A stretch of 64,000 nt of DNA. Source: Mobula hypostoma. Lineage: Eukaryota. How positions within the stretch are numbered: the stretch's first letter is position 1; every line of letters starts with the position of its first letter. Shown piece after piece: positions 212 to 56,236 of this stretch. Location: positions 16,368,001 through 16,432,000 of the forward strand of contig NC_086097.1 of NCBI RefSeq assembly GCF_963921235.1, in the 5' to 3' direction. A program made the translations under genes and the position numbers. The notes beneath the pieces are model-generated. The model worked only from the letters and a program-made list of their open reading frames with translations. It was not told where the DNA came from and ran no database searches.

Positions 212-408
212 AGCAACACACACAAAAAAATGCTGGTGAACGCAGCAGGCCAGGCAGCATCTATAGGAAGAGGTACAGTTGACGCTTCGGGCTGAGATGA
301 AGGGTTGACTGTACCTCTTCCAATAGATGCTGCCTGACCTGCTGCGTTCACCAGCACTTTTTGTGTGTGTTGCTTGAATTTCCAGCATTTGCAGATTTCC
401 TTGTGTTC
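212..408. repeat. Fold-back mini-element built from two inverted PLE terminal-repeat arms
   Basis: Arms ~212-283 and ~305-374 are reverse complements. Direct repeat atgaagcagca at 205-215 and 414-424. Confidence 0.85.
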
Positions 409-2001: not shown

Positions 2002-2374
2002 AATGGCAGCTAAAACTTGCAGCGGAAAATAGCAGGGAAGTAAACTAGTCTTTGAAGTTTGGGTAGTTACAATATAATCTCCCTTTAGTGAGAGTACTCA
2101 TGGCTATTTATATCCAATAGGGCTTAAGACCGTTGTATGAATTTAGAACCTTTGCAGTCAGCAAACCCAATACTATCATGCCACGATATATGTCTAAATA
2201 AATAATAAATGAATCTGTGGTGCTTTCAATCCGATTACCCCATCCCCCAATTAATTTTTCTGTGAACAAATCCCTTCAAGTGTCCATCAAAGCCAATGTA
2301 AAAGGTAAACTTATTATCAAGCTACATATAGAATGTGTGGAACCATATTCTGCACTGAGGTTCATTTTCTCGCA

Positions 2375-2528
2375 AACACGAGGAAATCTGCAAATGCTGG
2401 AAATTCAAGCAGCACACACAAAATGCTGGTGGAATGCAACAGGCCAGGCAGCATCGATGGGAAGAAGTACTTCATCCTATAGATACTGCCTGGTCTGTTG
2501 CGTCCCACCAGCGTCTTGTGTGCCTTGC
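2375..2528. repeat. Fold-back PLE-derived mini-element
   Basis: Inverted arms centred on gaagtacttc. Perfect 14-bp TSD ttcattttctcgca (2361-2374, 2529-2542). Confidence 0.85.
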
Positions 2529-3947
2529 TTCATTTTCTCGCAGGTTCTTTCTCACTTCACCCCTGATTCTTTGGCATCCACCTACTCAAGGGTCAATTTT
2601 CAGTGGCCAATCAGTAGTCATGCATGACTCCAGGATGTCAGAGAAAATACGTGATCACCCATGTGTGCAGATGGTAGTGGGTTCAAGCCCAGGCACTGGA
2701 GCTGTGCAGTACTAGCACCAACTGCAGGTGCAACCAAGCTGCCATATTGATCTGGGAATGCCCAGTTAATAATGATCCAGTTTACTGTTCTGGAGGGTAA
2801 ACCGTAAAAACTGATTTCTCGATCTGGTAGCATCGGTGTAGGCAAAAGGTGTAAGAGGTGAATGTGTGGAGTTTGTTGCCACAGGCAGCTGCGGAGGAAA
2901 AGTCAGTGGGTACATTTAAGGCAAAGATTAATAGATTTTGATTAGTCAGGGCATGAAGGGATACGGGGGGGGGAAGGCAGGAGATTGGGGCTGAGAGTGA
3001 AAATAGATCAGTCATGGTGAAATGGCAGAGCAGATTCGATGGGCCAAATGGTCTCATTCTGCTCCTATATCTTCTGGTCTTACCTTAAGTCACTGCTGCG
3101 GTTCAAGACTCTGCATCAGGATTGAGAAAGAAGAGAATTTATTTCCGGAATATTAGAGGTATGTAAAGGGTGGGATTGGGGCTGGTGGGTGATGTCGAAA
3201 TGGGGTGGGGATGATGGGCAGATGGAAGTGGGAGGGAGAGCAGAGTACAGGAGGTGATTGAACATAAAATGTCACGGCACAGGGACAGGCCCCAATGTCT
3301 GCGCCAAACATGATAACAAATTAAACTGAACCTTTCCTGCCTGCACATGATTCATATCCCTCCATTTCCTGCTCGTACATGAGGCAATCTAAAAGCTTAT
3401 TAAATGCCATTATTGTAGCTGTTGTAATGCTGGAGGAGCTCAGCAGGTCAGGCAGCATCTATGGAGAGGAATGAACAGAAGACGTTTTGAGCCGAAACCC
3501 TTCATCGGGACCGTATCTGCTTCAACCATCACCCTTGGCAGCTCGTTCCAGCAGGCATCCACCACTCCCCGATGTAAAAAAACACTACCCTGCACATCTC
3601 CATTGAATGTTCCCCCTCTCATCTTAAATGCATGTCCTCTCGTATTTGACATTTCTACCCTGGCCTGGAAGGTGACAGGTAGACATAACTTCAGAGTGCT
3701 AGTGTTACTGGACCACCATTTAGATCTCTAGATCTGGAGATCACCACCACAACGGTAACACCAAATAATTAAAATAAAACAGACTTAATGTCATAAAATC
3801 CCATTTGGTTCACTAAGACCTTTCAAGAAAGGAAATCTGCAATATTTTTCCAAGTTTGTCTTATGATTTAACTACGCTCTGAAATTTCCAAGCAAGCTGC
3901 TCAGCAGGCAGCAAATACAAGCGTCAGTAAATGCTTATTTCTTAAAA

Positions 3948-4680: not shown

Positions 4681-6774
4681 TTGTGAATGAATAGTTAACC
4701 CAAAGCTCAGCAGATTCAGGCCTGGTTAACATATGGGTGGGAAACCATTCAGTAATGCCCTGTGCAGTACGATTTATTTGCAAGGATCAAAAAACAAACT
4801 GGTGGAGAAACTCAAAGGGTCAGGCAGCAACAGCTGTCATCAGTTGCAGTGTCTAAGTTGTGCTGACTCAGAAAACAATAGGGACAAACGATCTTGTTCA
4901 GGGTTTTCAGAAAGATTATGCACGTGTGGAGATAAATAAACTGCAGAATAAAGCAAATGGAATAAGCACCCAAAGAATGATGCACTCTCAAGTGACCATT
5001 TGTAGATAAGGAAATAAGGAAATGTTTTTTAAAGAAGGCCTAACAGTAAGAGATTACTGAGAGTTGTGTAATGGATTTATCTAAAGGAATTGTGTCACTG
5101 CTAACTATCTTGATAAGGAAAGCCATTCCTGGTTTGCAGGGATGTACAGGACAGCAGATAGATTTATCTGAAGTGTGAAATGCTCAAGTTGTAATGAAAA
5201 ATGCAAGAAAATTCCAGCTACGGTCTGAAGAGAAAATGGTTAAGTGCAACAGATGCTGGAGGAAGTCAGCGGGCCAGGCAGCATCTGTAGTGAGGAATGG
5301 AGTCAACATTTTGGGTTAACACCCTGCATCAGGATCCAGCGTCGGCAGAATCTCGTGTTTATGATCAAAAGCAGAAAAGGCTTTCAATGTGGTATTTTTT
5401 GTTAGAATGACCATCATACTGAGTTATATAACATCCATCATGAATTTTAGCACCGTCTTGACTGAATGTAGGGTAGGCTGGCTAACTGTATACACATATG
5501 CTCTATTTCTATGCAAATACAAAGGTTAATTTTTCAACGTTTTCAGGAACCTCCCCCTTGGATACAAACAAGCTATTAATTTGGATTTACTACACATGAT
5601 TTTCAAAGCACCACAAAACAATCTGCAGTGCAATGCAGCTGCCAACTTAATGAAATGACAAGTTGCAAATGGGACTTCCAAGCAGAGAATATTACTAGGA
5701 ATTCAAGTTCCTTACTGATGAAGGGTTTTGGCCCAAAATGGCAACCGTTCATTCCCCTCCATCACCTGATCTGCTGAATTCCTGCAGCATGTTCTCCAGC
5801 AAGATTCTCAGCATCTGCAAAATCTTTTTTTACTAATGCTGTTAGTTCCACATGGAAACATTAAAAACAGACAATATTTTTGACATCCTATTGTTTAGCA
5901 AATACAGAAAATTAAAAGTCAAAAGAAATAACTGCAGATGCTGGAAATCTGAAATAGAACAAAACAGAAATTGAAGATTTTAGAAATTTTTTATCTTCCC
6001 TGGACAGACAATCTTCGGTCAAGGAATAATATAACCCTGAGACCCTGTTATTGAATGCAATAAACACAGAAAGCCATTCATTCCTGTTTGTTCCAGGACT
6101 GGCCAGCTCTGATAACATTAACTCAGTGCTTTTTCTCTCTCACAGATGCTGCTTGATCTGCTGATTATTTCCAAACTTCTCATTTATTTTAGATTTCTAG
6201 TAGTTGCTGTGTTCTGCATCTCTGCTTCCAGCATTGTATTTTACCATTGTATTTTTCTCTTTATTGCTGTCAATCGTATTTGTACTATTTATACTCTTCC
6301 AGACAGATTAACAAGAATTCATCACCTTCTCAAAGTTGGCAGCAACATCTTTTGTTTCAATTAAACCATCCTGGTCTCCACCATATCACAAATATGTTTC
6401 ACTCCAGGCCTCTTTCTCTCTGCAATTTAAAATTTCCTTTCAGAACATAAAACATGAAATGATACAGCACATTACAGGCCCTTTGGCCCATGGTGTTGCA
6501 CTGACCTTTAAACCTACCCTAAGATCAATCCAACCCTTCCCTTCCACATAGCCCTCCATTTTTCTATCATCCGTGTGCCCATCTAAGAGTTTCTCAAATG
6601 TCCCTTGCTATGTTTAGTAATTCCAAATCATTCATTTAACTAATCAAAGGGAAAAGACAGGAGTCCGAAATGAGAGTCTAACTTGCCTTTCTTTCAGGCG
6701 AGGTGCACATATCGTATGATGGTGTCATGACGTGCAATTCATGCATTTTTACATATAACCTCTAATTAATTATT

Positions 6775-15469: not shown

Positions 15470-16160
15470 ACACCCCTGGCTGCATCACCATCTGGTACCT
15501 GGTTTGCAGAGGGGCGGGTGGGAACTACTGCACAGAGTCAGAGTGAGCTGCGGAGAGTTGTAAAATTAGTCAGCTCCATCATGGGCATTAACCTCCATAG
15601 TATCCAGGACATTTTCAAGGAGTGGTCCCTCAGAAAAGTGGTGTCCACCTTTAAGGACCCCCACCACCCAGAACATGCCCTCTTCTCATTGCTGCCGTCA
15701 GGAAGGAGATACAGAAGCCTGAAGGCACACACTCAACGATTCAGGAACATCTTCTATCCCTCTGCCATCAGATTTCTGAATAGACATTGAACCCATGAAC
15801 TTTACCTCACAAACAAGAGAAAATCTGCAGTTGCTGGAAATCCAAAGCAACACACACAAAATGCTGGAGGAACTCAGCAGGCCAGGCAGCATCTATGGAA
15901 AAGAGTACAAAAGTCAACTGTACTCTTTTCCTAGATGCTGCCTGGCCTGCTGAGTTCCTCCAGCATTTTGTGTGTAACACTACCTCACTACTTTTTTATT
16001 TCCTTTTTTTTTGCACTACTTACTTAATTTAACACTTACATACATATAAAAGTATATACAGTATACACACTGTATTTTTTTCTATATTATTATTTACTGC
16101 TGCTGCAAAGTTAACAAATTTCACAACGTATGCTGGTGACATTAAACCTGATTCTGACTT
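15470..16160 (+). mobile_element. Rex1/Babar-like LINE 3' fragment (related pieces near 16460-16780, 21205-21480, 27060-27655, 41810-42230, 47190-47580)
   Basis: KDPHHPEHALFSLLPSGRRYRSLKAHTQRFRNIFYPSAIRFLN and an attaaacctgattctga tail. Confidence 0.75.
15811..15975. repeat. Fold-back PLE-derived mini-element
   Basis: Near-perfect inverted arms centred on gtcaac. Flanks are aactttacctcac and aacactacctcac. Inserted in a Rex1/Babar-like tail. Confidence 0.85.
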
Positions 16161-17307
16161 GGCCTGTGTATTTATAATTGGCTTCGCCTGTGTAAACACA
16201 AGACCTCTTTTGCAAAATTTACCACCAAGTTCTAGAGCTAGAAGTCAGAGAAATTGAATTTCACCAGCAGAATTATTATACAGTTGTTCATTGTAAACAA
16301 CTGAGATGACAATTTCTATCAGCTGATTTTCATCTTGTGTAATGAATATAATGCTGTCTGTACAGGTACAGAATAATTCACAAGGAGCACACGGAACGGG
16401 AAAGCCACAACAGGAAGAAAGGTTGCAGATTGATGTAGGATTAGTGTATAAAATTCGAAGGAATTTTATTATTAAAGTATGTGTGTGTCACCAGAAACTA
16501 CCCTGAGACTCATTTTCTTGCAGGCATTCACAGTAGAATGAAGAAATGTAATGAGAAACAAATAATAATAAATAAATGATAGATAAATAAGTAAACGAAT
16601 AAATATTAAATACTGAGTTGTAGAATCCTTGAAAGTGAGTCCATAAGTTGTGGAATCAATTCAGTGTCGAGGTGAGTGAAGTTATCTACGCTGGTTCAGG
16701 AGCCTGATGGTTGAAGGGTAATAACTGTTCCTGACCCTGGTGATGTGGGACCTAAGGCTCCTGTACACCCTGCCTGTATTAGTGAAAACAGGTCCTTGAA
16801 GGTGTCCATGGACCCTGTGACTTGTAGGGCCAGTTTCTGTGCTGTATCTCTCCATGCCTCTGACTCTTAAGAAAAGTGAGGACTGAAGTGATGACCTGGT
16901 AGAATTCTTTAAGATTGGATATAGGCATGTTTCCATTGCAAGAGTGTTCAAAATCTTCATGTTGGCAATGACCACCAACATTCCAGTAAGAAATCCAGGA
17001 AGAAGAATGGGTATGACCTCAGTACAGACTTGTTAGCTTGAATGGTCTTGATATTTGTAGTTGCTGTAAATGCAAAATACATTCTCTAAGAAAATAACTT
17101 TCTTTTCAAACTATTCAGGTCTCCTGGTCTTCCTCTTCCTGACTTTGAAAGGATGTATCCGTAGTGCTTGAATCTGTGGCAATGCAGGAATACCTCAGTT
17201 CATCTCTCCTGTCCTTGAAGCCTGTACAAAGAAGCTTCAACTTGCAAGTCAGAACTCCCTTTAATCATTGTGTCCCTAGGCAAGGTGGAGAACCCTCAGC
17301 TTATGCA

Positions 17308-18924
17308 ATGAACCTCAACGTACCTGAACAGAATGCAAGCAATTCCAACAACGGCTACGTGGAGGGAAGTCAGACAAATCTGCTTCATGCGCACCTGAAA
17401 AGGAACACCTTTGAAGATCCAGTGTCATCCTACTCCAGCAGGGATATTATTTCGCAGTTTCTGGAGAAATCCTCCAAGAAGAAGAACTCAGCCGATCATG
17501 AGCTAATCTTCTCCGCAAAGAACCTGTCCCGCTCCACTGCTGACTCATTCCAAGAGGAGAGCAACAGTAACTTCTCCAAAGACGGCGGGCAGGACCCTGG
17601 CTTGTCTTTCGCTCAGCATCCCTCAACAAACCCAGGTGAAGGGGATCGATTGTTTAACGAACATTTGCAAGCAAAGAGGGCGAGAGTGGAGAACATCATC
17701 CGCGGAATGAACAGTTCTCCGACTGACAGCCTTCACCACAGTGAGCTCGAGAGGGAGGGGGGTCAAAGGCGAGGAAGCCTGAACCTGTGCAAGGAGAACA
17801 AGCGGAAGCAGAGGCTCCCACAGCAGCAACAGCAGGAGCAGAATCCCGGGAAGAGCCCTGGTCTAGTTTCGTCCCTCAAGCAGCTTAGGAGAGAGGAGTG
17901 CCATAGGCTGAAGCAGCAGCTTCAGGAAATGCAGGGCAGGCTTCATGAACTTCAGGAAAAGTTTTTCCAGGTATACGATACAAGTGAATCCGAGCACGAG
18001 GACCAAGAGGACGCATCTGACTCCTGTTTCCATTTGGCTAGTACTGAGTACGGAGAAAATACCATGGAAAAGTATCACAGTGACCTTCCAGACATGGACC
18101 AGAGTCCCTGTATTGACCACATTCAGACAATTGGCCATGAGAAAGAAATGACACCCGGAAAGGAAGCAAGTAAGCATCATGATGCGGGCAAAAAATTCAA
18201 CCGTTGTAATAGTTATGGTTTCTCTTCAGTGGAGAGTGGATATCTCGCAGAATCTCTGAAATATGAGCTGACCAATGCAGTGGCTCACATCGTAGACTCG
18301 GCCGTACAGTTGTTCTCTGTAACACCTTCCCCCACTTCTTCTCAGTCATTTCAAAGTTTGCCGGCCTCCAGGTCCAAGAGCACCCCACAAAATGGTAATA
18401 CAACCCTGAGGATGCCGAGTCATGACTTCCAGTGTTCCTCAGACCCAGTGACGATGCATCAGTACTTTGACAACTGTCAAAACCCTTGTACAATCCAAGC
18501 TCATGATCAGACGGAAGCAATACCACTGGTGGTGAGAAAGTCACCCCAAAACCAGTCTAATCTTGTTGGTCCAATTATTAAACAGGGCTGTCAAATGCCG
18601 CATAACAAACCACCATTAACATTGGTTCTGGACTCCCAGATGTCTCTGACTGAATTGCCTGACCCCATTTTGAGATACAACATGCAGAATTACATAGGAC
18701 ATACCTTCGCTGTAACTACAAAAGACAATGTTGCTTCTAAGCCAACGTGCCTTTCATGGGACACTGTCAAACTGAGGTCAAAGGTTACCTCGCACCACAC
18801 AGCCCACCAGTTGTATCCAGGTTTCCGGCAAAAACCACCACAGAATCTCAATCTTTCTCACATCAAGTCCGAATGTGGGGAGCCGCGATCCATGGTGGAC
18901 ATCACTCCATACTCATCGGCAAAC
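17308..18924 (+). CDS. PROX2: Prospero homeobox protein (PROX2-like), first large coding exon
   Basis: Part of the 595-aa ORF 17164-18951. Carries PROX-family motifs EHLQAKRARVENIIRGM, KENKRKQRLPQQQQ, a coiled coil LKQQLQEMQGRLHELQEKFFQVYD, LAESLKYEL, QTEAIPLVVRK and HIKSECG. It lacks the PROX1 N-terminus (MPDHDS...), hence PROX2-like. Start taken as ATG 17308 (MNLN...); an in-frame ATG also lies at 17182. Ends in phase 0 at AAC|GTATCCTTT. Candidate upstream acceptor ttttcaaactattcag ends at 17118. Family call is secure; paralog identity is less so. Confidence 0.88.
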
Positions 18925-19034
18925 GTATCCTTTCCAAATGTCGTCTTGTGAAGTTACAGAACGTTAGAAAAATCTTGCATGTGTTAGAACATGGTTGGAA
19001 TTTCACTCCATGCATGCAAACTTCACCACCATCA

Positions 19035-24500: not shown

Positions 24501-25559
24501 CAGACAAGGTTTCATCTGGAAACATTGATAATTCATTTCCATCCACAGAGGCTGCTCGACCTTCAGAGTTTCTCCAGCGCCTCAGAGGCAGCTTGCTGAT
24601 TATGGGAACAGGTTCAGACTTTTCAGATAGTCAGTAATTTCCTGTCCGGAGACCTCAGCTAATTGAAAACATCACAGCAGATTCAGCCAATTCAATGACA
24701 TCCTCTACTGCCTGGACAACAGTTCTGCATGCAAGAAACATGCCCTTTGGATATACTTTCCATCCACCTTGATACTCCTGCGCCCTGGTATGTACCCATC
24801 CCAAGTCCTTGGAGAAGAAAACAAAAGCAATAATATATTTGAGAGGAAAAGAACAGCAACTTTAAACAGAAATCCATTAAGTGAATTGTATTCTGAAACT
24901 GAATTGCAAAGTCTTTTGTTTTCTTGTTTGCTTAATATGTAAATAGACATCATTTCATTAAAGTGGATTAGGCATCTGTAAATGAATGGAGTGTATTGCT
25001 ATATAAAAGAAGGTTCTCTGGTACTCACAAGGAGATGTGAGTGGCTGTGAGCCTTTCATTGCTACTTGGTACTCCAGGCCCACTATTGTTCCAGCCAGTT
25101 TCTGATGCTAATGCAGGCAACATCCGCTCCTTCCCAGCTGCCAATATCCCCTTACATGCTCAATCACAGAGGAGCAATGAAAAATATACAAGGTTATATT
25201 TTTCTTCATTTAACAGGCAAACACACCTCTCAAATTATAATTTCAATCAAGGTTTACAGCATCACAGAAAGGGTCAAAAATCTTAAGTGGGTTACACAAA
25301 CAAAATGCTGGAGGAACTCAGCAAGTCAGGCTGCATCTGCAGAGGGTCCAGTCCTGTAGAAGGGCCTTGGCCCAAAACGTCGAAGTTCAAAGCAAATTTA
25401 TTAGCGAAGTATGTATATGTCACCATGTACTCCCCTGAGATTCGTTTTCTTGCAGCCATTTATAGGAAAACTAAGAAACACAATACCAGGGGTGATTGAT
25501 AAGTTTGTGGCCTAAGGTAGAAGGAGTCAATTTTAGAAAACCTAGCACATTTATTTTTC

Positions 25560-26499
25560 AAGCAACACACATAAAAGTTGCTGGTGAATGCAGCAGGCCA
25601 GGCAGCATCTCTAGGAAGAGGTGCAGTCGACGTTTCAGGCCGAGACCCTTCGTCAGGACTAACTGAAGGAAGAGTGAGTAAGGGATTCGAAAGTTGGAGG
25701 GGGAGGGGGAGATCCAAAATGATAGGAGAAGACAGGAGGGGGAGGGATGGAGCCAAGAGCTGGACAGGTGATAGGCAAAAGGGATACGAAAGGATCATGG
25801 GACAGGAGGTCCGGGAAGAAAGACAAGGGGGGGGGGACCCAGAGGATGGGCATGGGGTATATTCAGAGGGACAGAGGGAGAAAAAGGAGAGTGAGAGAAA
25901 GAATGTGTGTATAAAAATAAGTAACAGATGGGGTACGAGGGGGAGGTGGGGCATTAGCGGAAGCTGGAGAAGTCGATGTCCATGCCATCAGGTTGGAGGC
26001 TACCCAGACGGAATATAAGGTGTTGTTCCTCCAACCTGAGTGTGGCTTCATCTTTACAGTAGAGGAGGCTGTGGATAGACATGTCAGAATGGGAATGGGA
26101 CACGGAATTAAAATGTGTGGCCACTGGGAGATCCTGCTTTCTCTGGCGGACAGAGCATAGATGTTCAGCAAAGCGGTCTCCCAGTCTGCGTCGGGTCTCG
26201 CCAATATATAAAAGGCCACATCGGGAGCACCGGACGCAGTATATCACCCCAGCCAACTCACAGGTGAAGTGTTGCCTCACCTGGAAGGACTGTTTGGGGC
26301 CCTGAATGGTGGTAAGGGAGGAAGTGTAAGGGCATGTGTAGCACTTGTTCCGCTTACACGGATAAGTGCCAGGAGGGAGATCAGTGGGGAGGGATGGGGG
26401 GGACGAATGGACAAGGGAGTTGCGTAGGGAGCGATCTCTGTGGAATGCAGAGAGGGGGGGGGAGGGAAAGATGTGATAGGGAGCGATCCCTGCGGAATG
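25560..26499 (-). mobile_element. Penelope-like retroelement, 3' part: GIY-YIG endonuclease plus terminal repeat
   Basis: ORF 25954-26523(-) contains CKRNKCYTCP...FTCELAGVIYCVRCSRCGLLYIGETRRRLGDRFAEHL, a PLE-type GIY-YIG domain. It is followed by a pyrimidine-rich UTR and the terminal repeat seen many times in this window. Flanked by duplicated tttatttttc (25550-25559, 26500-26509). Confidence 0.88.
25624..25661 (-). ncRNA. Minimal type I hammerhead ribozyme in the PLE terminal repeat
   Basis: Minus strand reads UAGUC-CUGACGA-AGG GUCUCGG CCU-GAAA-CG-UC^GACUG. This gives stem I (AGUC/GACU), the CUGANGA box, stem II, GAAA, a palindromic ACGU mini stem III and a GUC cleavage triplet. Same strand as the PLE ORF. 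Confidence 0.8.
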
Positions 26500-29400
26500 T
26501 TTATTTTTCCTACATTTACACACTTAGTCCAGTGGTCGTGGAGCATACGTATCTCTTCTTTGTAGAAGTCGGCGTCTTGGACCTCCAGAAAATGGTCCAC
26601 AGCAGGGGTGATTAATAAGTTCGTGGCCTAAGGTAGGAGATGAGTTGCTAACTCAAACTTTCTGCATTTTCACTCAAGGAGTTGAACTGCATGTGCATAT
26701 AATGAGAGCTGTATAACTCATCTCCTTCTACCTTAGGCCACAAACTTATCAATCACCCCTGCTGTGGACCACCTGGAGGTCCTAAGTGCTCTCGTTACAT
26801 GCACGTGCAGTTCAACTTTTTGAGTGATAATGCAGAAGGTTTGAAGTTAATAACTCGTCTCCTTCTCCTTTAGGCCACAAACTTATCAATCACCCTTGCT
26901 GTGGACCACTTCTACAAAGAAGGGATCTGTATGCTTCACAACCACTGGACTAAGCGTGTACATGTAGGAGGGGACTATGTTGAAAAATAAATGTGCTAGG
27001 TTTTCTAAAATTGACTCCTTCTACCATAGGCCACGTACTTATCAATCACCCCTCATAGAACCAATAAGAAGTTATACATAAACGAAGACTGACAAACATC
27101 CAATGTGCAAAGGAAGACAAATTGTGCAACTATAAAACATAAATAGTAAACATGTAACACTGAGAACCTGAGTTGTAGAGTCCTTGAAGTCCACAGGTTG
27201 TGGAGTCAGTTCAGAGTTCAGGAGAGTGAGGTTGTCCACATTGGTTCAGCAGCCTGATGAATGAAGGGTAATAACTGTTCCTCAGACTGGTGGTGTGGGA
27301 CCTCAGGCTCCTCTTACCCTCTGGTAAGAGAGCATGGCCTGGATGATGAGGGCCCCCGATGATGGATGTGCTTTCTTGTGGCAGGGCTCCTTATAAATGC
27401 GTTCAATGGTCGGAGGGCTTTGCCTGGGATGAACTGGGTTGTATCCATCACTTCCTATAGCCTTTTCCATTCTTGGGCATTGGGGTTTCCATTACAAGCC
27501 TTGATCCAACCAGTCAAGATGCTCTCCACTGTGCATCTATAGAAGTTTGTTAAAGTTTTAGATGACACACCGAACCTATGCAAACTTCTAAGAAACCAGA
27601 GGCGCCGTTGTGTCTTCTTTGTGATGGCACTTATGTGCTGCTTTTTCTCCGCCACAGGGTGCTGTCAGACCTGTTGAGCTCCTCCAGCATTTTGTGTGTG
27701 TTGCTCAAGTTTTAAAGCATCTGCAGAAACTCTCGTTTTTAAGTGGGTGACAGTCTGAGTTCATATATGGATTCTTCAAAAGTGTTTTGGATCCCGCATG
27801 ATCCTATAATGATTACCTCAAAAATCTCTAATGAGTTAATTAAATTTTAATGTGTAGCCAGGATAATGGTCACCAGTGTGAAGATGATGGATTGTGTGAG
27901 AGGTGCTGAGTAACGGATACAGAGAGTTGGGCGGCATTTACATTAAAAAAGACTCTGAAAGAGGAATGGAGGATTCCATTTATAAATGGAGGCAACACCC
28001 CCTTCAAGATATTTCAAAATGCTTTAAGGTCAATTAAATAGCTTTAAGTGTTGTAATGTTGGTAACACTGTCAATTTGTACACAAAAGCTGTGATAAACA
28101 ACATTGTGACAATTACTAAAAATGTACTGTATTGCGCAGTCAGTTGAAGGATAATTATCAGCAGGACCCTGGAGATAAACTTCTCCAGCCTCCTTCAGCA
28201 TAAGGCCATGAAACCTGTTCTGTTCACCAGGTCACCAGAGGGGGAAGATGGATTTTGGGTTGAATATTTCATTTGAAAGACAGTGCAGCATTTCTTCAGT
28301 GATGACTTGTGGTAAGAATGCACAAAGCTTATGAGCAGCAGCTGAGGTTTAACTCGACAGAAAAAAATGAATGCACCAGGTGTGTGTGTGTGAAACTACA
28401 CAAACTGAGCTGAGAGCAATTTCACTTTCTGTGTGTCTGTATTCTGTAATGCAGGAATATTCTAAAACTAGTGATTAAATTCCTTTCCTAGAGTTCTGTT
28501 TGAACTGTTTCATCATTCCCAATGGATTATCAAGTCAGGTGCAGTAAACCCCAATGTAGCCTCTTCTGGTGAGATGACCCATTCCACTTGTGCTGTCCTT
28601 GCAGTAAATATGGTCCAACTGTGTAATGTACTTCACAGATCATTCATTGACAACAATGCATTAGCCAACAGGTTGGAGGAGGGGTGGGATGAGTGACTCA
28701 CTGGAAACAGTACAAAGAACTACAGGAAATAAAACTTACTCAAAGAGCAAACTTTGAAGTACAGTATGAGTAGAAATTTACAGTAATTCTGTCAACAAAA
28801 GCAGAGTAACTTTTGACAAAAACCACAGTGGGTAGACGGTGACTGCATTCAAGTTATGTGCTCAAAATTAATCTCTGTCAGTAATGGCAGCCTGGTCACC
28901 GAGCTGGTCTGACAGGGGAACTACTCAATCATCTCTACTTTTTTTATGTTTGCCACAATGGCTAAGTTCAGTGTAATAACATCTTTATATTTATTTATTT
29001 ATTGAGATTCCGCGTGGAATAGGCCCTCCCGGCCTTTCGAGCCACGCCGCCCAGCAATCCACAATTTAACCCTAGCCTAATCATGGGACAATATACAATG
29101 ACCAATTAACCTACGAACGGGTACATCTTTGGAATGTGGGAGGAAACCAGAGCACCAGGAGGAGACCCATGTGGTAACGGGGAGAACATACAAACTCAAC
29201 ACAGGCAGTGGTGGGAATTGAACCTTGGTCTCTGGTACACTACTGTACCGCTCCAAATAAAAAGAACACTAATAATTTAGTAATTAGACTAAGTAAGAGG
29301 CTATTTTTAGTTGGCGTGCCTCCCATCTTCTGGAGGGTAACGATAACAAGATAATTACAACAAAGGTTCCCATCGTGAACTAAAATCTACCCTTACATTA

Positions 29401-33879: not shown

Positions 33880-35588
<1,709 letters not shown>

Positions 35589-36939: not shown

Positions 36940-39900
36940 CATGACTGCGCAAGCGCATGGACATCAACTAGTTAGATCGGCGGGAAGAGTTTAAAAAGAA
37001 GACAGCTTTATAGAGCGGGCGTCAAAGTAGGAGGGCTTTGGCTCAACGGGGCTTTGACGATAATGAGTCGAGGTGAGGTAGGTTACTTGTGAAGAATAGG
37101 AATAGGAAGTATGTCTGTGAGGCCGGTGTTCTGTACTGGGTATCAGATGTGGGATGTTCAGGAGATTCCCAGCCTCCCGGACGGCCACATCTGTGCCAGG
37201 TGTGTCAAGCTGCAGCTCCTTAGGGACCGGGTTAGGGAACTGGAGATGCAGCTCAATGATCTTCATCTGGTCAGGGAGAGTGAGGAGGTGATAGAGAGGA
37301 GCTATAGGCAAGTAGTCACACCGGGGCCTTGGGAGACAGATAAATGGGTAACAGTCAGGAGGGGGAAGGTGAAGGGTCAGATACTAGAGAGTACCCCTGT
37401 GGCTGTCCCCCCTTAACAACAAGCACTCCTGTTTGAGTACTGTTGGGAGGGAATGACCTACTTGGGGGAAGCAACAATGGCCGTGCCTCTGGCACAGAGT
37501 CTGGCCCTGTGGCTCAGAAGGGCAGGGAAAGGAAGAAGGCAGCAGTGATAGGGGGCTCTATAGTTAGGGGTCAGACAGGTGATTCTGTGGACGCAGGAAA
37601 GAAACGTGGATGGTAGTTTGCCTCCCAGGTGCCAGGGTCCAGGATGTTCTGATTACATCCATGATATTCTGAAGTGGGCAGGTGAACAGCCAGAGGTCGT
37701 GGTACATGTTGGTACCAATTACATAGGTAGGAAAAGGGAGGAGGTCCTGCAAACAGGGAATTAGGAAGGAAATTGAGAAGCAGGACTTCAAAGGTAGTAA
37801 TCTTGGGATTACTGCCTGTGCCACACGGCAGTGAGTATAGGAATAGAGTGAGGTAGAGGATAAATGTGTGACTGAGGGATTGGAGCAGGGAACAGGGATT
37901 CAATGGGACCTCTTCTGGGGCAGGCGTGACCGGGACAAAAAGGACGGGTTGCATTTGAATCTGAGGGGGACCAATATCCTGGCAGGGAGGTTTGCTAAGG
38001 CTTGGGGAGAGTTTAGATTAGAATTGCTGGGGGTTGGGAGCCAAACTGAACAGACGGAGGAAGAGGCAGTTGGCTCACAAATAGAGAAAGCTTGGAGACA
38101 GTGCGAGAGGGAGGATAGGCAGGTGATAGAGAAGGGATGTACTCAGACCGATGGTTTGAGATGTGTCTATTTTAATGCAAAGAGTATCATGAACAAAACA
38201 GATGAGTTTAGAGCGTGGATCAATACTTGGAACTATAATGTTGTGGCCATTACAGAGACTTGGATGGCTCAGGGACAGGAATGGTTACTTCAAGTGTCAG
38301 GCTTTAGATGTTTCAGAAGGGACACGGAGGGAGGTAAAAGAGGTGGGGATGTGGCACTACTGATCAGAGATAGTGTCACAACTGCAGAGAAGGAGGAAGT
38401 CATGGAGTGATTGTCTACGGAGTCCCTGTGTGTGGAAGTTAGGAATAGGAAGGGATCAATAACTCTACCGGGGTTTTTTTTATAGATCACCCAATAGTAA
38501 CAGGGACATCGAGGAACAGATGGTGAGTCAGATTCTGGAAAGGTGTAATAATAACAGGGTTATCGTGGTGGGAGATTTTAATTTCCCAAATATCATAGAA
38601 ACATAGAAAACCCACAGCACAATATAGGCTCTTCGGCCCACAAAGCTGTGCTGAACATGTCCTTACCTTAGAACTACCTAGGCTTACCCATAGCCCTCTA
38701 TTTTTCTAAGCTCCATGTACCTATCCAGGAGTCTCTTAAAAGACCCTATCGTTTCCACCTCCACCACCGCCGCCGGCAGCCCATTCCATGCACTCACCAC
38801 TCTCTGCGTAAAAAAACTTACCCCTGGCATCTCCTCTGTACCTACTTCGAAGCACCTTAAAACTATACCCTCTCGTGCTAGCCATTCCAGCCCCGGGAAA
38901 AAGCCTCTGACTATCCACATGATCAATGCCTCTCATTATCTTGTACACCTCTATCAGGTCACCTCTCATCCTCCATCGCTCCAAGGAGAAAAGGCCAAGT
39001 TCACTCAACCTGTTTTCATAATACATGCTCCTCAGTCCAGGCAACATCCTTGTGAATCTCCTCTGCACCCTTTCTAAGGTTTCCACATCCTTCCTGTAGT
39101 AAGACGACCAGAATTGAGCACAGTACTCCAAGTGGGTTCTGACCAGGATCCTATATAGCTGCAACATTACCTCTTGGCTCTTAAATTCAAACCCACGGTT
39201 GATAAAAGCCAATGCACCATATGCCTTCTTAAGTACAGGGTCAACCCGCGAAGCAGCTATGAGTGTTGATTGGCATTTCCCTAGAACAAGGGGTTTAGAT
39301 GGGTTGGAGTTTTTTAGGTGTGTTCAGGAGGGTTTCTTGACACAATATGTAAAAAAGCCTACAAGAGGAGAGGCTGTACTTGATCTAGTATTGGGAAATG
39401 AACCTGGTCAAGTGTCAGATCTTTCAGTGGGGGAGCATTTTGGAGATAGTGATCACAATTCTATTTCCTTTACCATAGCATCAGAAAGGGATAGGAACAG
39501 ACAAGTTAGGAAAGCGTTTAATTGGAGTAAGGGGAAATCTGAAGCTATCAGGCAGGAACTTGGAAGCATAAATTGGGAACAGATGTTCTCAGGGAATTGT
39601 ATGGCAGAAATGTGGCAAATGTTCAGGGGATATTTGCGTGGTGTTCTGCAAAGGTACATTCCAATGAGACAGTGGAAGGATAGTAGGATACAGGAACCGT
39701 GGTGTACAAAGCCTGTTGAAAATCTAGTCAAGAAGAAAAGAAAAACTTGCGAAAGCTTCAAAAAACTACGTGATGATAGAGATCTATAAGGCTAGCAGGA
39801 AGGAGCTTAAGAATGAAATTAGGAGAGCCAGAAGGAGCCATGAGAAGGCCTTGGCAAGCAGGATTAAAGAAAATCCCAAGGCATTCTACAAGTATGTGAA

Positions 39901-41675
39901 GAGCAAGAGGATAAGATGTGAGAGAATAAGACCAATCAAGTGTGACAGTGGAAAAGCGTGTATGGAACTGGAGGAGATAGCAGAGATACTTAATGAATAC
40001 TTTGCTTCAGTATTCACTATGGAAAAGGATCTAGGCAATTGTAGGGTTGACTTGCAGTGGACTGAAAAGCTTCAGTATATAGTCATTAAGAAAGAGGATG
40101 TGCTGGAGCTTTTGGAAAGCATCAAGTTGGATAGGTCACTGGGACTGGACGAGATGTACCCCAGGCTACTGTGAGAGGCAAGGGAGGAGATTGCTGAGCC
40201 TCTGGCAGTGATCTTTGCATCATCAATGTGGACGGGAGAGGTTCTAGAGGATTGGAGGTTTGCAGATGTTCCCTTATTCAAGAAAGGGAGTAGGGATAGC
40301 CCAGGAAATTATAGACCAGTATGTCTTACTTCAGTGGTTGGTAAGTTGATGGAAAAGATCCTGAGAGGCGGGATTTATGAACATTTGGAGAGGCATAATA
40401 TGATTAGGAATAATCAGCATGGCTTTGTGAAATGCAGGTCATGCTTTACGAGCCTGATTGAATTTTTTGAGGATGTGACTAAACACATAGATGAAGGTAG
40501 CATAGTAGATGTAGTGTATATAGATTTCAGCAAGGCATTTGATAAATTACCCCATGCAAGGCTTAGTGTAGGTATTCTCAATCCAAGGGGACCTTGCTTT
40601 GTGGATCCAGAATTGGCTTGCCCACATAAGGCAAAGAGTGGTTGTAGACGGGTCACATTCTGCATGGAGATTGGTGACCAGTGGTGTGCCTCAGGGATCT
40701 GTTCTGGGACCCCCTACTCTTCGTGATTTTTATAAATGACCTGGATGAGGAAATGGAGGGATAGGTTAGTAAATTTGCTGATGACACAAAGGTTGGGGGT
40801 GTTGTGGATAGTGTGGAGGGCTGTAGGAGTTTGCAGTGGGATATTGATAGGATGCAAAACTGGGCTGAGAAGTGGCAGATGGAGTTCAACCCAGATAAGT
40901 ATGAGGTCATTCATTTTGGTAAGTCAAATATGATGGCAGAATATAGTATTAATGGTAAGACTCTTGGCAGGGTGGAGGAGCAGAGGGATCTTGGACTCCA
41001 TAGGACACTCAAAGCTGCTGTGCAGGTTGACTCTGTGGTTAAGAAGGCATACAGTGCATTGGCCTTCATCAATCGTGGGACTGAGTTTAAGAGCCGAGAG
41101 GTAATGTTGCAGCTATATAGGACCCTGGTCAGACCCCACTTGGAGTACTGTGCTCAGTTCTGGTCGCCTCACTACAGGAAGGATGTGGAAACTATAGAAA
41201 GGGTGCAGAGGAGATTTACCAGGATGTTTCCTGGATTGGGGAGCATGCCTTATGAGGATAAGTTGAGCAAACTCGGCCTTTTCTCCTTGGAGCGATGGAG
41301 GATGAGAGGTGACCTGATAGAAGTGTATAAGATGATGAGAGGTATTGATCATGTGGATGGCCAGAGGCTTTTTTCCCAGGGTTGAAATAGCTAACACGAG
41401 AGGGCACAGATTTAAGGTGCTTGGAAGTTGGTAAGAGGAGATGTCAGGGGTAGGTTTTTTACACAGAAAGTGGTGAGTGCATGGAATGGGCTGCTGGCAA
41501 TAGTGGTGGAAACGGTTAAGATAGGGTCTTTTAAGAGACTCTTGGACAGGTACATGGGGCTCCAAAAAATAGAGAGCTATGGGTAACCTTAAGTAACTTC
41601 TAAAGTAAGTACGTGTTCCGCACAGCATTGTGGGCCAAAGGGCCTGTCTTGTGCTGTAGGCTTTCTATGTTTCTA
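36940..41675 (+). mobile_element. Near full-length degenerate CR1 LINE
   Basis: ORF1 remnants: zinc finger FCTGYQMW...ICARC and SGNH esterase PEVVVHVGTN. ORF2 remnants: APE (YFNAKSI, VVAITETW, LDLVLGN...DSDHN) and RT (NYRPVCLTS, DFSKAFD, FADD region, RPHLEYCAQFWSP). Ends in a ttctatgtttcta tail. Many stops and frameshifts. Confidence 0.92.
38596..39255 (-). mobile_element. 5'-truncated CR1 inserted antisense into the larger CR1
   Basis: ORF 38736-39212(-) is a CR1 ORF2 C-terminus. The atagaaacatagaa tail starts at 38596. Confidence 0.88.
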
Positions 41676-53359: not shown

Positions 53360-53585
53360 TAACACATCAAAAATGCTGGAGGAACTCAGCAGGCCAGGCA
53401 GCATCTATGGAAAGGAATAAAGAGTTGGCATTTTGGGCCAAGACTCTTCATCAGGGCTCGAGTCTCAGCCTGAAATGTTTACACTTACATTCCCATCCAT
53501 AGATGCTGCCTGTCCTGCCATGTTCCTCCAGTATTTTGCATGTGTTGCTGTAGATTTGCAGCATCTGCAGAATCTCTCTTGTGTT
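53360..53585. repeat. Fold-back PLE-derived mini-element (older)
   Basis: aaatgctggaggaactcagcaggccaggcagcatctatgga ... tccatagatgctgcctgtcctgccatgttcctccagtatttt, with hammerhead remnants of both orientations in the centre. No clear TSD. Confidence 0.75.
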
Positions 53586-54292: not shown

Positions 54293-56046
54293 CAAAGCAA
54301 ATTGAGCTCTAAAGACAATGACATCCTTGAGATACTCTTTTAAAATTCACAGGAATGGTTTCATCCTTATGACCCTGTTGGGACAGGGTGGTGAGAAGTA
54401 ATGGATGATCATCAGGGCAACAACATCTTGGAGAAAGCTAGCAATCTGATTGTCAACAAAACTGCCCAATCTCAGTGGAGAGTCACACCTATGGCTTCCT
54501 TTCCAGAGAAGAGAAAACAATTAATGTGTGGCCCATCCATAGAACCTAAACCGGCCAATTACTTGTCATCAGAGTTGGGGTTGTTTTAGAGCAACGCAGG
54601 AACAAGGCTAGATATTATGCAAATGTATCTATTGATGATGTTAGCTCAATGAAGTTTAAACCACCCCAATAAAAGTACTTACCTGGCTTAGCTCAGACTC
54701 AGGCTAAGATCCTTATCAAAAAATTCATTTATTCCCAGAAACTTGGACGAGGGTAATACACTGACTACATGTAATATTTCCAAGAATGTTGCATACGAAA
54801 AAGTATCAAAATACCCATATCTAAGAGATAAATCACATGTAACTTGCATCAGGGCGTTATCCACAAGTGCTACAGAAAGCCCTGATACAACCAACAATAA
54901 AGAGATCAGATATCTATCCACAAAAGAAGCAGGAGCAGTGACTCTTTCAACCATCAGGCAGGAGGTAGCATAGCATTAGTAAAAAGATTGTTAGGATGGG
55001 AAACAGCTTCTTCCCCAAGGCCATGAGACTATCGAATTCCCTTCCATCATGTATGAAGCGACAATAATGATATGCTGTTTACTTTTTAACTTGTGTCGTA
55101 AATACACCTTATTATTTGTTATAGTTGTGGCTCCCCATTGATCAGGCTCAACTGTGGATGGTGAGTCCCAGTTGTCTATGTGATAAGCAAGCCTGGGCCG
55201 TATGATATGGAGAGCAAGCTGTTGCCCATGTATCAAGCTCCACCTCTGCACGCAGCTGATGAACACAAAGGAACAGTAGAGACCAATGCAGTTTGGAACC
55301 AGCACGTCACAGGAATTGCTGGTCAGCATTGAACTTCATGTAGGACTGCTTTAGGGACTCTAGCTCAGGATATTGCCTCGAGGTTTAATCCCAAAGCCTT
55401 GCCTGTGAATGCGTATAGCTGCAAGGCAGCGGAGGTTTCAAATCGAAGTTTCTCTTCTCCTAGATGAGCTGACAACTATGTCTGACTAGCTCCATATTCC
55501 CAAAGCAACTGGTTTTAAGGGGACAGTAACCTGCCTTTGCCCTTCTCCCATCAAGCTGGGCTTGTTGACAGACTATTTAAGACGCTCGCTATTGAGAGCA
55601 TTTAATAGGTAGTGGGAGTGTAACCGCACTACACTGCCCCCACCCCATCGGGCTATGACAACCTTAATGAATGTTAAGTTATTTGTGATAATATTGCTTT
55701 CTGTGTTCTGTGTGAATTATACTTATTGTTTTGTGCACCTTGATACGGAGGAATGTTGTTTCGTTTGGCTGTATACATGTACATGGTTGATGACAATAAA
55801 CTTGAACTTGAAACTCAAAACCCTTGAGCCTGCTTTGCTGTTCAAGAAGATTAGTGCTGAACTGTTTCCTCAATACTTCCCTGCCCTTCAATATAAGACC
55901 ATAAGATATGGGAGCAGAATTAGGCCATTTGGCCCACTGAGTCTGCTCTGCCATTTCTTCAGGGCTGATCCATTTCCCTGTCAGGCTCAACCTCCTGCCT
56001 TCTCCCTGTATCCTTTCATCTCCTGACCAATCAAGATAAGAAATAG

Positions 56047-56236
56047 CAAACAAGAGAAAATCTGTAGATGCTGGAAATCCAAGCAACACACACAAAATGC
56101 TGGAGGAACTCAGCAGGCCTGGCAGCATCTATGGAAAAAAGTACAGTCGATGTTTCAGACTGAGACGTCAACTGTACCTTTTTTCATAGATGCTGCCTGG
56201 CCTGCTGAGTTCCTCCAGCATTTTGTGTGTGTTGCT
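56047..56236. repeat. Fold-back PLE-derived mini-element
   Basis: Inverted arms around gtcgatgtttcagactgagacgtcaac. Flanks are aagataagaaata and aagaaagaaata. Confidence 0.85.

Follow-up and report, generated by a model that had tools for sequence, protein, structure and literature searches.

Hairpin insertions of a Neptune-type Penelope-like element in Mobula hypostoma: a limiting case of a known structure, likely formed by priming from both target ends

How does a retroelement leave behind nothing but two copies of its own 3' end, facing away from each other? The question is raised by a short hairpin in a 64,000-nucleotide stretch of Mobula hypostoma DNA (contig NC_086097.1, positions 16,368,001 to 16,432,000 of the forward strand; hereafter the window), which is made of two inverted 3' ends of a Penelope-like element (PLE). 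An earlier note on this stretch had explained this hairpin and four like it as the products of ribozyme-cut RNA that was reverse transcribed and then snapped back on itself, and had proposed a new non-coding class on that basis. Our analysis favors another origin, to which we give a probability of roughly 70%: the hairpins are the shortest form of the inverted Neptune-type PLE insertion, likely made by priming from both ends of a staggered target cut at two fixed start sites followed by microhomology joining, with no need for ribozyme cleavage. The sample behind this reading is small, hand-read and confined to the window.

Judged from its sequence, the parent is an EN+ Penelope-like element of Neptune type. 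The long one-armed copy (Table 1) encodes the C-terminal part of a GIY-YIG endonuclease whose translation is 93% identical to a Mobula hypostoma protein, the nearest proteins being from Mobula hypostoma and Hypanus sabinus (14 matches among 399 candidates). Two cysteines (CxxC) are in place between GIY and YIG, and the frame is followed by a stop and then by the PLE repeat; a C-terminal GIY-YIG domain with two cysteines between GIY and YIG is how the available text of PMC8557442 defines EN+ PLEs. Upstream of GIY-YIG the frame 25954-26523 contains a CX4CxxC linker, and the same source describes CX2-5CxxC at this place as diagnostic for Neptune and Nematis and missing in Poseidon (PMC8557442); the choice of Neptune over Nematis is based on the linker motif and the host group. 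The PLE copies in the window are 5'-truncated before the reverse transcriptase (RT). Their terminal repeat (pLTR) was confirmed to carry an optional tail of ~35 nt, with ends at +62 to +72 and at +100 to +103 in the numbering given below, and the tail appears as a loose end in all four of the public contig runs that we read. The family is very abundant, with 108,250 and 58,448 contigs matching 321 nt in the two DNA runs.

Two of the one-armed copies lie inside other repeats. The long copy splits a repeat at 25487-27053 whose ends are in inverted orientation (96% over 74 nt) and whose interior holds further copies of the end sequence; we take this repeat to resemble a mariner-type non-autonomous element. 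The young copy at 34255-34378, which has a target duplication of at most 4 bp, is surrounded by an element with inverted arms 1.3-1.5 kb apart (33903-35564); a frame within the latter (34380-34832) is presumably Tc1-like. Pattern scans for further copies gave 1 and 0 loci in viral contigs, 114 in metagenome contigs and 0 in prokaryote genomes. The 115 viral and metagenome loci were rejected as chance matches, each being at most 33 nt long.

Positions within the PLE are counted on its sense strand, which is the minus strand of 25557-26500, from the predicted hammerhead cut, GTC^GAC. The long copy contains a complete minimal type I hammerhead (as defined in PMC4209133) in which the 5' strand of helix I begins at -32 (25660) and the predicted cut falls between 25629 and 25628. 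The motif extends from -32 to +4, and its core is complete in only 1 of 13 arms examined, that of the long copy. A search of the window with Rfam at the gathering score returned 0 matches. Among 10 decayed copies, helix II is 85% paired and helix I 58%, both well above the 23-49% of slid controls, but covariation in the two helices was not above shuffles (202/500). The motif resembles the hammerheads of metazoan PLEs in its core, in the extra base before helix II, in a palindromic junction that lacks helix III and in its location in the pLTR (PMC4209133). That report of 2014 describes pairs of minimal hammerheads, one on each strand, at distances of 100-700 bp, and traces many single motifs to truncated PLEs (PMC4209133). 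In contrast to those, the arms studied here mostly break inside the motif, and no element keeps a working ribozyme.

Table 1. Coordinates of the hairpin elements, their target duplications and the parent-family copies in the window. Arm starts are given relative to the predicted cut.
Feature	Coordinates	Strand	Remarks
E3, focal two-armed element	15811-15975	.	two inverted PLE 3' ends
E3 left arm, PLE 3' end with tail	15811-15915	antisense on +	
E3 right arm, tailless PLE 3' end	15913-15975	sense on +	
E3 centre	15910-15918	+	three extra A and GTCAAC, a decayed 6-bp palindrome across the predicted cut
E3 target duplication, left copy	15798-15810	+	13 bp, 2 mismatches vs right copy
E3 target duplication, right copy	15976-15988	+	
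E1	212-408	.	tailless arm from -17, tailed arm from -26
E1 target duplication	205-215/414-424		11 bp, perfect
E2	2372-2530	.	both arms begin at +5; palindrome GTAC (2467-2470) common to both
E2 target duplication	2361-2374/2529-2542		14 bp, perfect
E4	53360-53585	.	older; arm starts -32 (tailless) and -20 (tailed); joint overlap 0
E4 target duplication, probable	53344-53359/53587-53605		decayed, 16-19 bp; score 10.5, 0.5% of pseudo-elements
E5	56046-56236	.	arm starts -18 (tailed) and -5 (tailless); joint overlap 2 nt
E5 target duplication	56033-56045/56237-56248		13 bp, one indel
E6	25294-25387	.	old pair, head to head; arm starts about +1 and -33
E7	5247-5360	.	tailless arm -30 to about +58, head-to-head with tail-only arm +74 to +103
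Long one-armed parent-family copy	25557-26500	-	about 940 nt, inside another repeat
Long-copy target duplication	25550-25559/26500-26509		10 bp
GIY-YIG endonuclease, C-terminal part	25954-26487	-	Pfam PF01541, 24.6 bits (cut-off 22.6)
Complete minimal type I hammerhead in long copy	25625-25660	-	CUGAcGA, helix II, GAAAC-GUC
Young one-armed copy with tail	34255-34378	+	-21 to +103

All five inverted pairs reported by the earlier note (E1 to E5) were found where it had placed them. Its list was real as far as it went but missed E6 and E7, the latter with an arm start at +74, well away from the hammerhead. In every element the 3' ends point outward and the truncated 5' ends meet centrally. The described asymmetry of the outer ends was also borne out, with one arm reaching +100 to +103 and the other stopping at +62 to +69 in 5/5 named elements. 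The tail accordingly sits on exactly one arm in all five, and in 6/6 when E7 is added (coin-flip probabilities of 0.03 and 0.016, respectively). The focal hairpin (15810-15975) folds at -120.5 kcal/mol (z = -19.3, 0/200 shuffles as stable), and its centre does match the predicted cut as had been proposed, reading GTCAAC at 15913-15918 with the three extra A just 5' of it. The tailed arm of E1 has a 15-nt deletion across helix II, and its joint has a 2-nt overlap (3 before CpG decay). The arms of E6 overlap by 5 nt of helix I, and its right arm is cut short. Those of E7 share no overlap, and neither can be copied from the other; its tail score was matched by 8 of 3044 tiles, all 8 at real PLE tails. 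Of the six arms of the named elements that reach into the hammerhead, none has a complete core.

Three other features of the window are recorded here as separate observations. The stretch 5915-6225 is a possible old two-armed element with both arms from near -34; an insertion in the left arm and the loss of helix II in the right one leave it too decayed to count. A LINE-like piece at 38675-41595 has inverted arms at 38885-39266 and 41005-41386 (87%), which probably reflect a 5' inversion or nested inverted copies. Finally, the focal hairpin lies about 1.2 kb upstream of a 600-codon open frame on the plus strand (17149-18951), which resembles the large exon of a Prospero-family (Prox) gene; Pfam gave no match above cut-off for this frame.

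The flanking direct repeats of 11-14 bp claimed for four elements are present, perfect in E1 and E2 and slightly degraded in E3 and E5. Scores as high were obtained for 0.4% (E1), 0.07% (E2), 1.3% (E3) and 0.4% (E5) of 3000 random pseudo-elements. A PLE origin and a single insertion event for each element are supported, and so is their repeated, independent origin, as the centres all differ. Could the elements still belong to a non-autonomous family, MITE-like or retrozyme-like, that spreads as a unit? The hairpin shape, the terminal inverted repeats and the target duplication would suit such a family. However, the seven joints (E1 to E7) are all different and the ends are asymmetric, and the duplications, at 11-14 bp or longer, vary in length and match that of the one-armed 940-nt copy (10 bp). 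There is also no tandem array, nor a complete hammerhead in any arm of the five elements. We consider this explanation almost certainly wrong, in agreement with the earlier note, which had set these elements apart from ordinary MITEs.

The hand-read arm starts, which include -3 for both arms of E3, lie in or beside the hammerhead for 10/10 arms of the five named elements (-32 to +5). The claim that the centre lies near the cut and varies from copy to copy therefore holds for the position of the starts, but each element has two breakpoints, not one centre. Because elements of 150-220 bp had been selected, their centres were partly forced to fall near the hammerhead, and the same selection speaks for a further alternative, namely that the centres are secondary: longer inverted insertions, being unstable palindromes, would have lost their middles later, so that only short hairpins survive or assemble. 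The 15-nt deletion in E1 and the three extra central bases in E3 are what such a history could leave. Yet one-armed copies, which are free of any hairpin, start in the same zone (3428 at -31, 34255 at -21, 5715 at -28 and 24509 at -34; copy 3428 directly abuts an older LINE piece), and the loose ends in public contigs described below also fall there. Hence we regard secondary loss of the middles as very improbable. Over the whole window we read 25 5' ends by hand, a count that leaves out the pair at 5915-6225, copy 51215 (which runs upstream and has an indistinct end) and the internal fragments 22283 and 42839. Twenty-one of these ends fall in -38 to +10 and none in -87 to -39; of the remaining four, two continue for about 800 nt and the other two are shorter. 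A wider tally of ends gave 23/28 against 1/5 (p = 0.013). The clustering of 5' ends at the hammerhead region is real. The proposed concentration of breakpoints at the motif is thus confirmed, but the cut itself is not favored, as only 3 of the 21 in-zone ends lie within 3 nt of it (p = 0.50). The -35 to -29 bin holds 5 of the 21, which is not a significant enrichment in the window (p = 0.18).

Public contigs from two species gave a larger sample of 5' loose ends, which we read in two DNA runs (X1 and X5) and two runs guessed to be RNA (X15 and X16). All of the loose-end and joint counts are lower bounds, with 1119 further rows beyond those considered. Among the rows listed, the top loose ends are at -32 and -31, with at least 607 and 207 contigs in X1 and 558 and 244 in X5; -32 also leads in X15 (91) and X16 (64). 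These ends have median loose lengths of 81-250 nt and low agreement, as expected for unique flanks. The cut (place 25628) is not among the best six loose-end rows of X1 or X5, the smallest of which have 185 and 154 contigs. Part of the -32 signal is a homology edge: the majority letters of the loose ends at 25660 resemble the upstream sequence of another subfamily (agreement 0.37-0.46). Strand-change joints numbered two among 15 of 41 joint rows (+22/-15 in X5 and +12/-31 in X16), too few to draw a distribution from.

The contigs yielded other observations. The +12/-31 strand-change joint (25617/25659) comes from a contig with a depth of 1673 in X16, an RNA-guessed run, and has a geometry like that of E6. 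Among the joints listed, 25660-25626 and 25660-25624 occur in a few contigs of X1, X5 and X15 and correspond to a 35-nt hammerhead unit repeated head to tail (-32 to +3), with similar rows in X1 and X5 that have three letters between the units (to +5); a direct tandem of this 35-nt unit would give a natural hammerhead dimer. T>C differences on the plus strand (A>G on the PLE sense strand) were seen at 25679, 25686, 25687, 25720 and 25761 at 5-14% in the RNA-guessed runs and at 0.06-0.54% at the same five places in the two DNA runs. Places with T>C numbered 22 and 22 in the former and 9 and 6 in the latter. The pattern resembles A-to-I editing, upstream of the hammerhead, of transcripts that contain the PLE, as read here from contigs of unmatched individuals in runs whose RNA status is guessed.

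These data bear directly on the proposal that the hammerhead cuts the RNA, that RT runs off the template at +1 and that the cDNA then snaps back at the palindromes. Several features speak for it: the two arms of E3 mirror each other at the cut, the whole of E2 is located downstream of that site, an arm of E6 possibly begins at +1 and the motif is intact in the long copy. In addition, a joint at 25628-25557, present in one contig each of X1, X15 and X16 among the joints listed, represents a copy that begins exactly at +1, head to tail behind the 3' end of another copy. However, 6 of the 10 arms, including both arms in 3 of the 5 elements, hold 5-32 nt from upstream of the cut. RNA cut at this site would begin at +1, and templating by cut RNA is therefore not supported for these arms. 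Neither the window nor the contigs favor the cut as an end point, the latter pointing to -32 and -31 instead. Furthermore, the cut site is the centre of the longest palindrome in the region, so that annealing of cDNA made from uncut RNA would give the same E3 product. According to the available text of PMC11167929, hammerhead mutants of the anole PLE insert normally in vitro, uncut RNA is the predominant substrate, and the hammerhead cut coincides with neither the beginning nor the end of any RNA-seq read in anole. Templating by cut RNA is therefore refuted as a general rule, and we judge the whole scheme, as the source of these hairpins, to have only a slim chance of being right. A minority of elements, such as E3, may nonetheless have arisen in this way; cleaved templates are possible for E3, perhaps for E6, and for the joint at +1. 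RT may also have jumped across a nick held together by helix I.

Snap-back could also have taken place on uncut RNA, with the cDNA folding at a short inverted match near the hammerhead, copying itself and having its second arm resolved at +68. E1 (-26/-17) and E5 (-18/-5) have the tailed arm further 5' and a closing match of 2-3 bp, as this route would predict, and they fit the snap-back of a single cDNA as well as they fit two primings. The arms are always of one subfamily, and self-annealing with 2-bp microhomology has been proposed for L1 inverted duplications (10.1101/2024.12.14.628481, in the part available). However, snap-back cannot yield E7, whose arms do not overlap, or E4, in which the tailless arm is longer than the tailed one, and as a general route it fails on these two elements. 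E2 and E3 turn on loopless palindromes, the cDNA of -33 to +5 folds weakly (-2.8 kcal/mol), and the end of the second arm at the end site of one-armed copies is left without a reason. Overall, we find this route improbable. The similarity of the arms does not help to separate the models. For 6 of 10 arms the closest sequence, alone or in a tie, is the partner arm, which ranks 2, 3, 5 and 9 of 16 for the other four; the arms share a subfamily but are not closer to each other than to other copies of that subfamily. To the extent that sequence similarity can tell, arms of a shared subfamily fit one source per event.

We therefore return to priming from both target ends, in which the GIY-YIG endonuclease would nick both strands about 13 nt apart and each target 3' end would prime at one RT start site, probably on one RNA (twin priming) or alternatively on two RNAs from one source. 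Synthesis of cDNA would tend to stop within the hammerhead region, with the upstream edge as the commonest end point, either because the RNA begins there or because RNA structure stalls RT. The cDNA ends would then anneal at palindromes or helix strands, with flaps trimmed and gaps filled, and the hammerhead region would act through its position and base-pairing. Evidence for two start sites comes from the one-armed copies, which use both outer ends (+72 at 25557 and +103 at 34378); both are therefore likely to be priming sites. The RNA-labelled runs also have heterogeneous loose ends at +68 and +66 (places 25561 and 25563). Evidence for joining by microhomology comes from the overlaps at the joints of E1 to E5, which are 2, 4, 6, 0 and 2 nt, whereas a uniform null gives a mean sum of 3.6 (p = 0.0009, or 0.01 if E3 is counted as 3), although the three asymmetric joints alone have no significant excess (p = 0.21). 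The symmetric joints of E2 and E3 fall on loopless palindromes of 4 and 6 bp, on which, we infer, two strands can anneal but one strand cannot fold. The target primer overlaps the RNA end by 4 nt in E1 and, at each end of E2, by 2-3 nt, but by at most 1 nt in E3 and at neither end in E5. Biochemical support comes from anole, where the Poseidon protein, a predicted dimer, nicks and extends both target strands and RT starts at two sites bounding the tail (PMC11167929, available text); this is an element of the Poseidon clade, whereas the present one is of Neptune type.

The structure itself has been described before. In rotifer PLEs an inverted, 5'-truncated pLTR adjoins a direct one, with a 30-40 bp tail on one of them, a single target duplication of 8-10 bp, palindromes and microhomology at the 5' joints and arms of variable size (PMC3846280), and this arrangement is typical of the class (PMC8557442). 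The present elements share the inverted arm, the one-sided tail, the one duplication and the joint microhomology with such EN+ PLE insertions (PMC3846280, PMC8557442 and PMC2377424, all as available to us); inverted arms and a one-sided tail are found in 5/5, and a target duplication is clear in two and degraded in three. They differ in having nothing between the pLTR pieces, both of which are <135 nt, and in duplications of 11-14 bp. They also differ in that the arm starts cluster on the hammerhead, a feature on which we found no statement in the available text of the same three papers. The anole Poseidon element is similar in that its hammerhead lies about 70-100 nt upstream of the two RT starts that bound the tail; nicking and extension of both strands, observed there in vitro, is proposed here from sequence. 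The two differ in clade, the present element having the CX4CxxC linker, and the text available to us leaves inverted arms and 5' ends unexplained (PMC11167929). Twin or dual priming of L1 likewise involves priming at both nicks, inverted pieces within one duplication and microhomology or end joining at the inner joint, and E7 has the classic L1-like form of an inversion with deletion (PMC2837659). However, the internal site of the second L1 priming varies and L1 arms are free of overlap (PMC2837659), whereas here both priming sites are fixed, 35 nt apart, and the arms usually overlap. Non-LTR retrozymes are also non-coding, PLE-related sequences with a type I hammerhead, but they form head-to-tail arrays of whole ribozymes (10.64898/2026.07.22.740005, available part), and the copies here are head to head and broken. 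Our literature search, which covered papers and main texts free of subscription, turned up no publication that deals with PLE inserts made of a hairpin alone or with 5' ends located at the edge of the hammerhead. The hairpins are a limiting case of a known structure (PMC3846280, PMC8557442, PMC4209133), and the claim of a new, ribozyme-driven class fails.

Why synthesis should end so often at -32 has several possible answers besides the homology edge. RT may be stalled or released by the first stable RNA structure that it encounters; in agreement with stalling, the folding energies of 38-nt windows lie between -6 and -10.5 kcal/mol from -54 to +30 but mostly above -3 from -174 to -60, although the hammerhead motif alone (z = -1.24) is no more stable than its shuffles. 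We also considered a 3' splice site at -31 (polypyrimidine tract and AG) but did not adopt it, since a shallow search found no intron-type ends among the skips listed and copy 3428 joins target DNA directly. Alternatively, the RNA may start there. In 5 of 9 copies examined, the base at -32 corresponds to the A of a word similar to an initiator, the initiator consensus being YYANWYY. It is conceivable, though we think it unlikely, that transcription of the element starts at -32, where helix I begins, that a dimeric enzyme primes both sites on one RNA and that the mini-insertions arise by run-off. A start precisely at helix I would depart from the case of D. virilis, in which transcription starts 46 nt before a 75-nt intron (PMC2377424, available text) whose end maps to helix I (PMC4209133). 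If transcription did start at -32, the RT start sites would be only 100 and 135 nt from the 5' end of the RNA, and the hammerhead would remove a capped leader of 32 nt, which would make it an off-switch rather than a source of templates. The numerous inserts would then be a genomic read-out of how PLEs form inverted arms and tails.

What do these small insertions mean for the family and its host? The hairpins are dead from the moment of insertion and do not form a mobile family of their own; they also introduce short hairpins into host transcripts. The route by which PLEs acquire inverted arms and a one-sided tail is called undefined in the available text of PMC8557442, and a genome with many short two-armed copies would let twin priming, dual priming and snap-back be separated by counting. 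The pile-up of 5' ends at the edge of the hammerhead may hint that the motif has a role other than cleavage.
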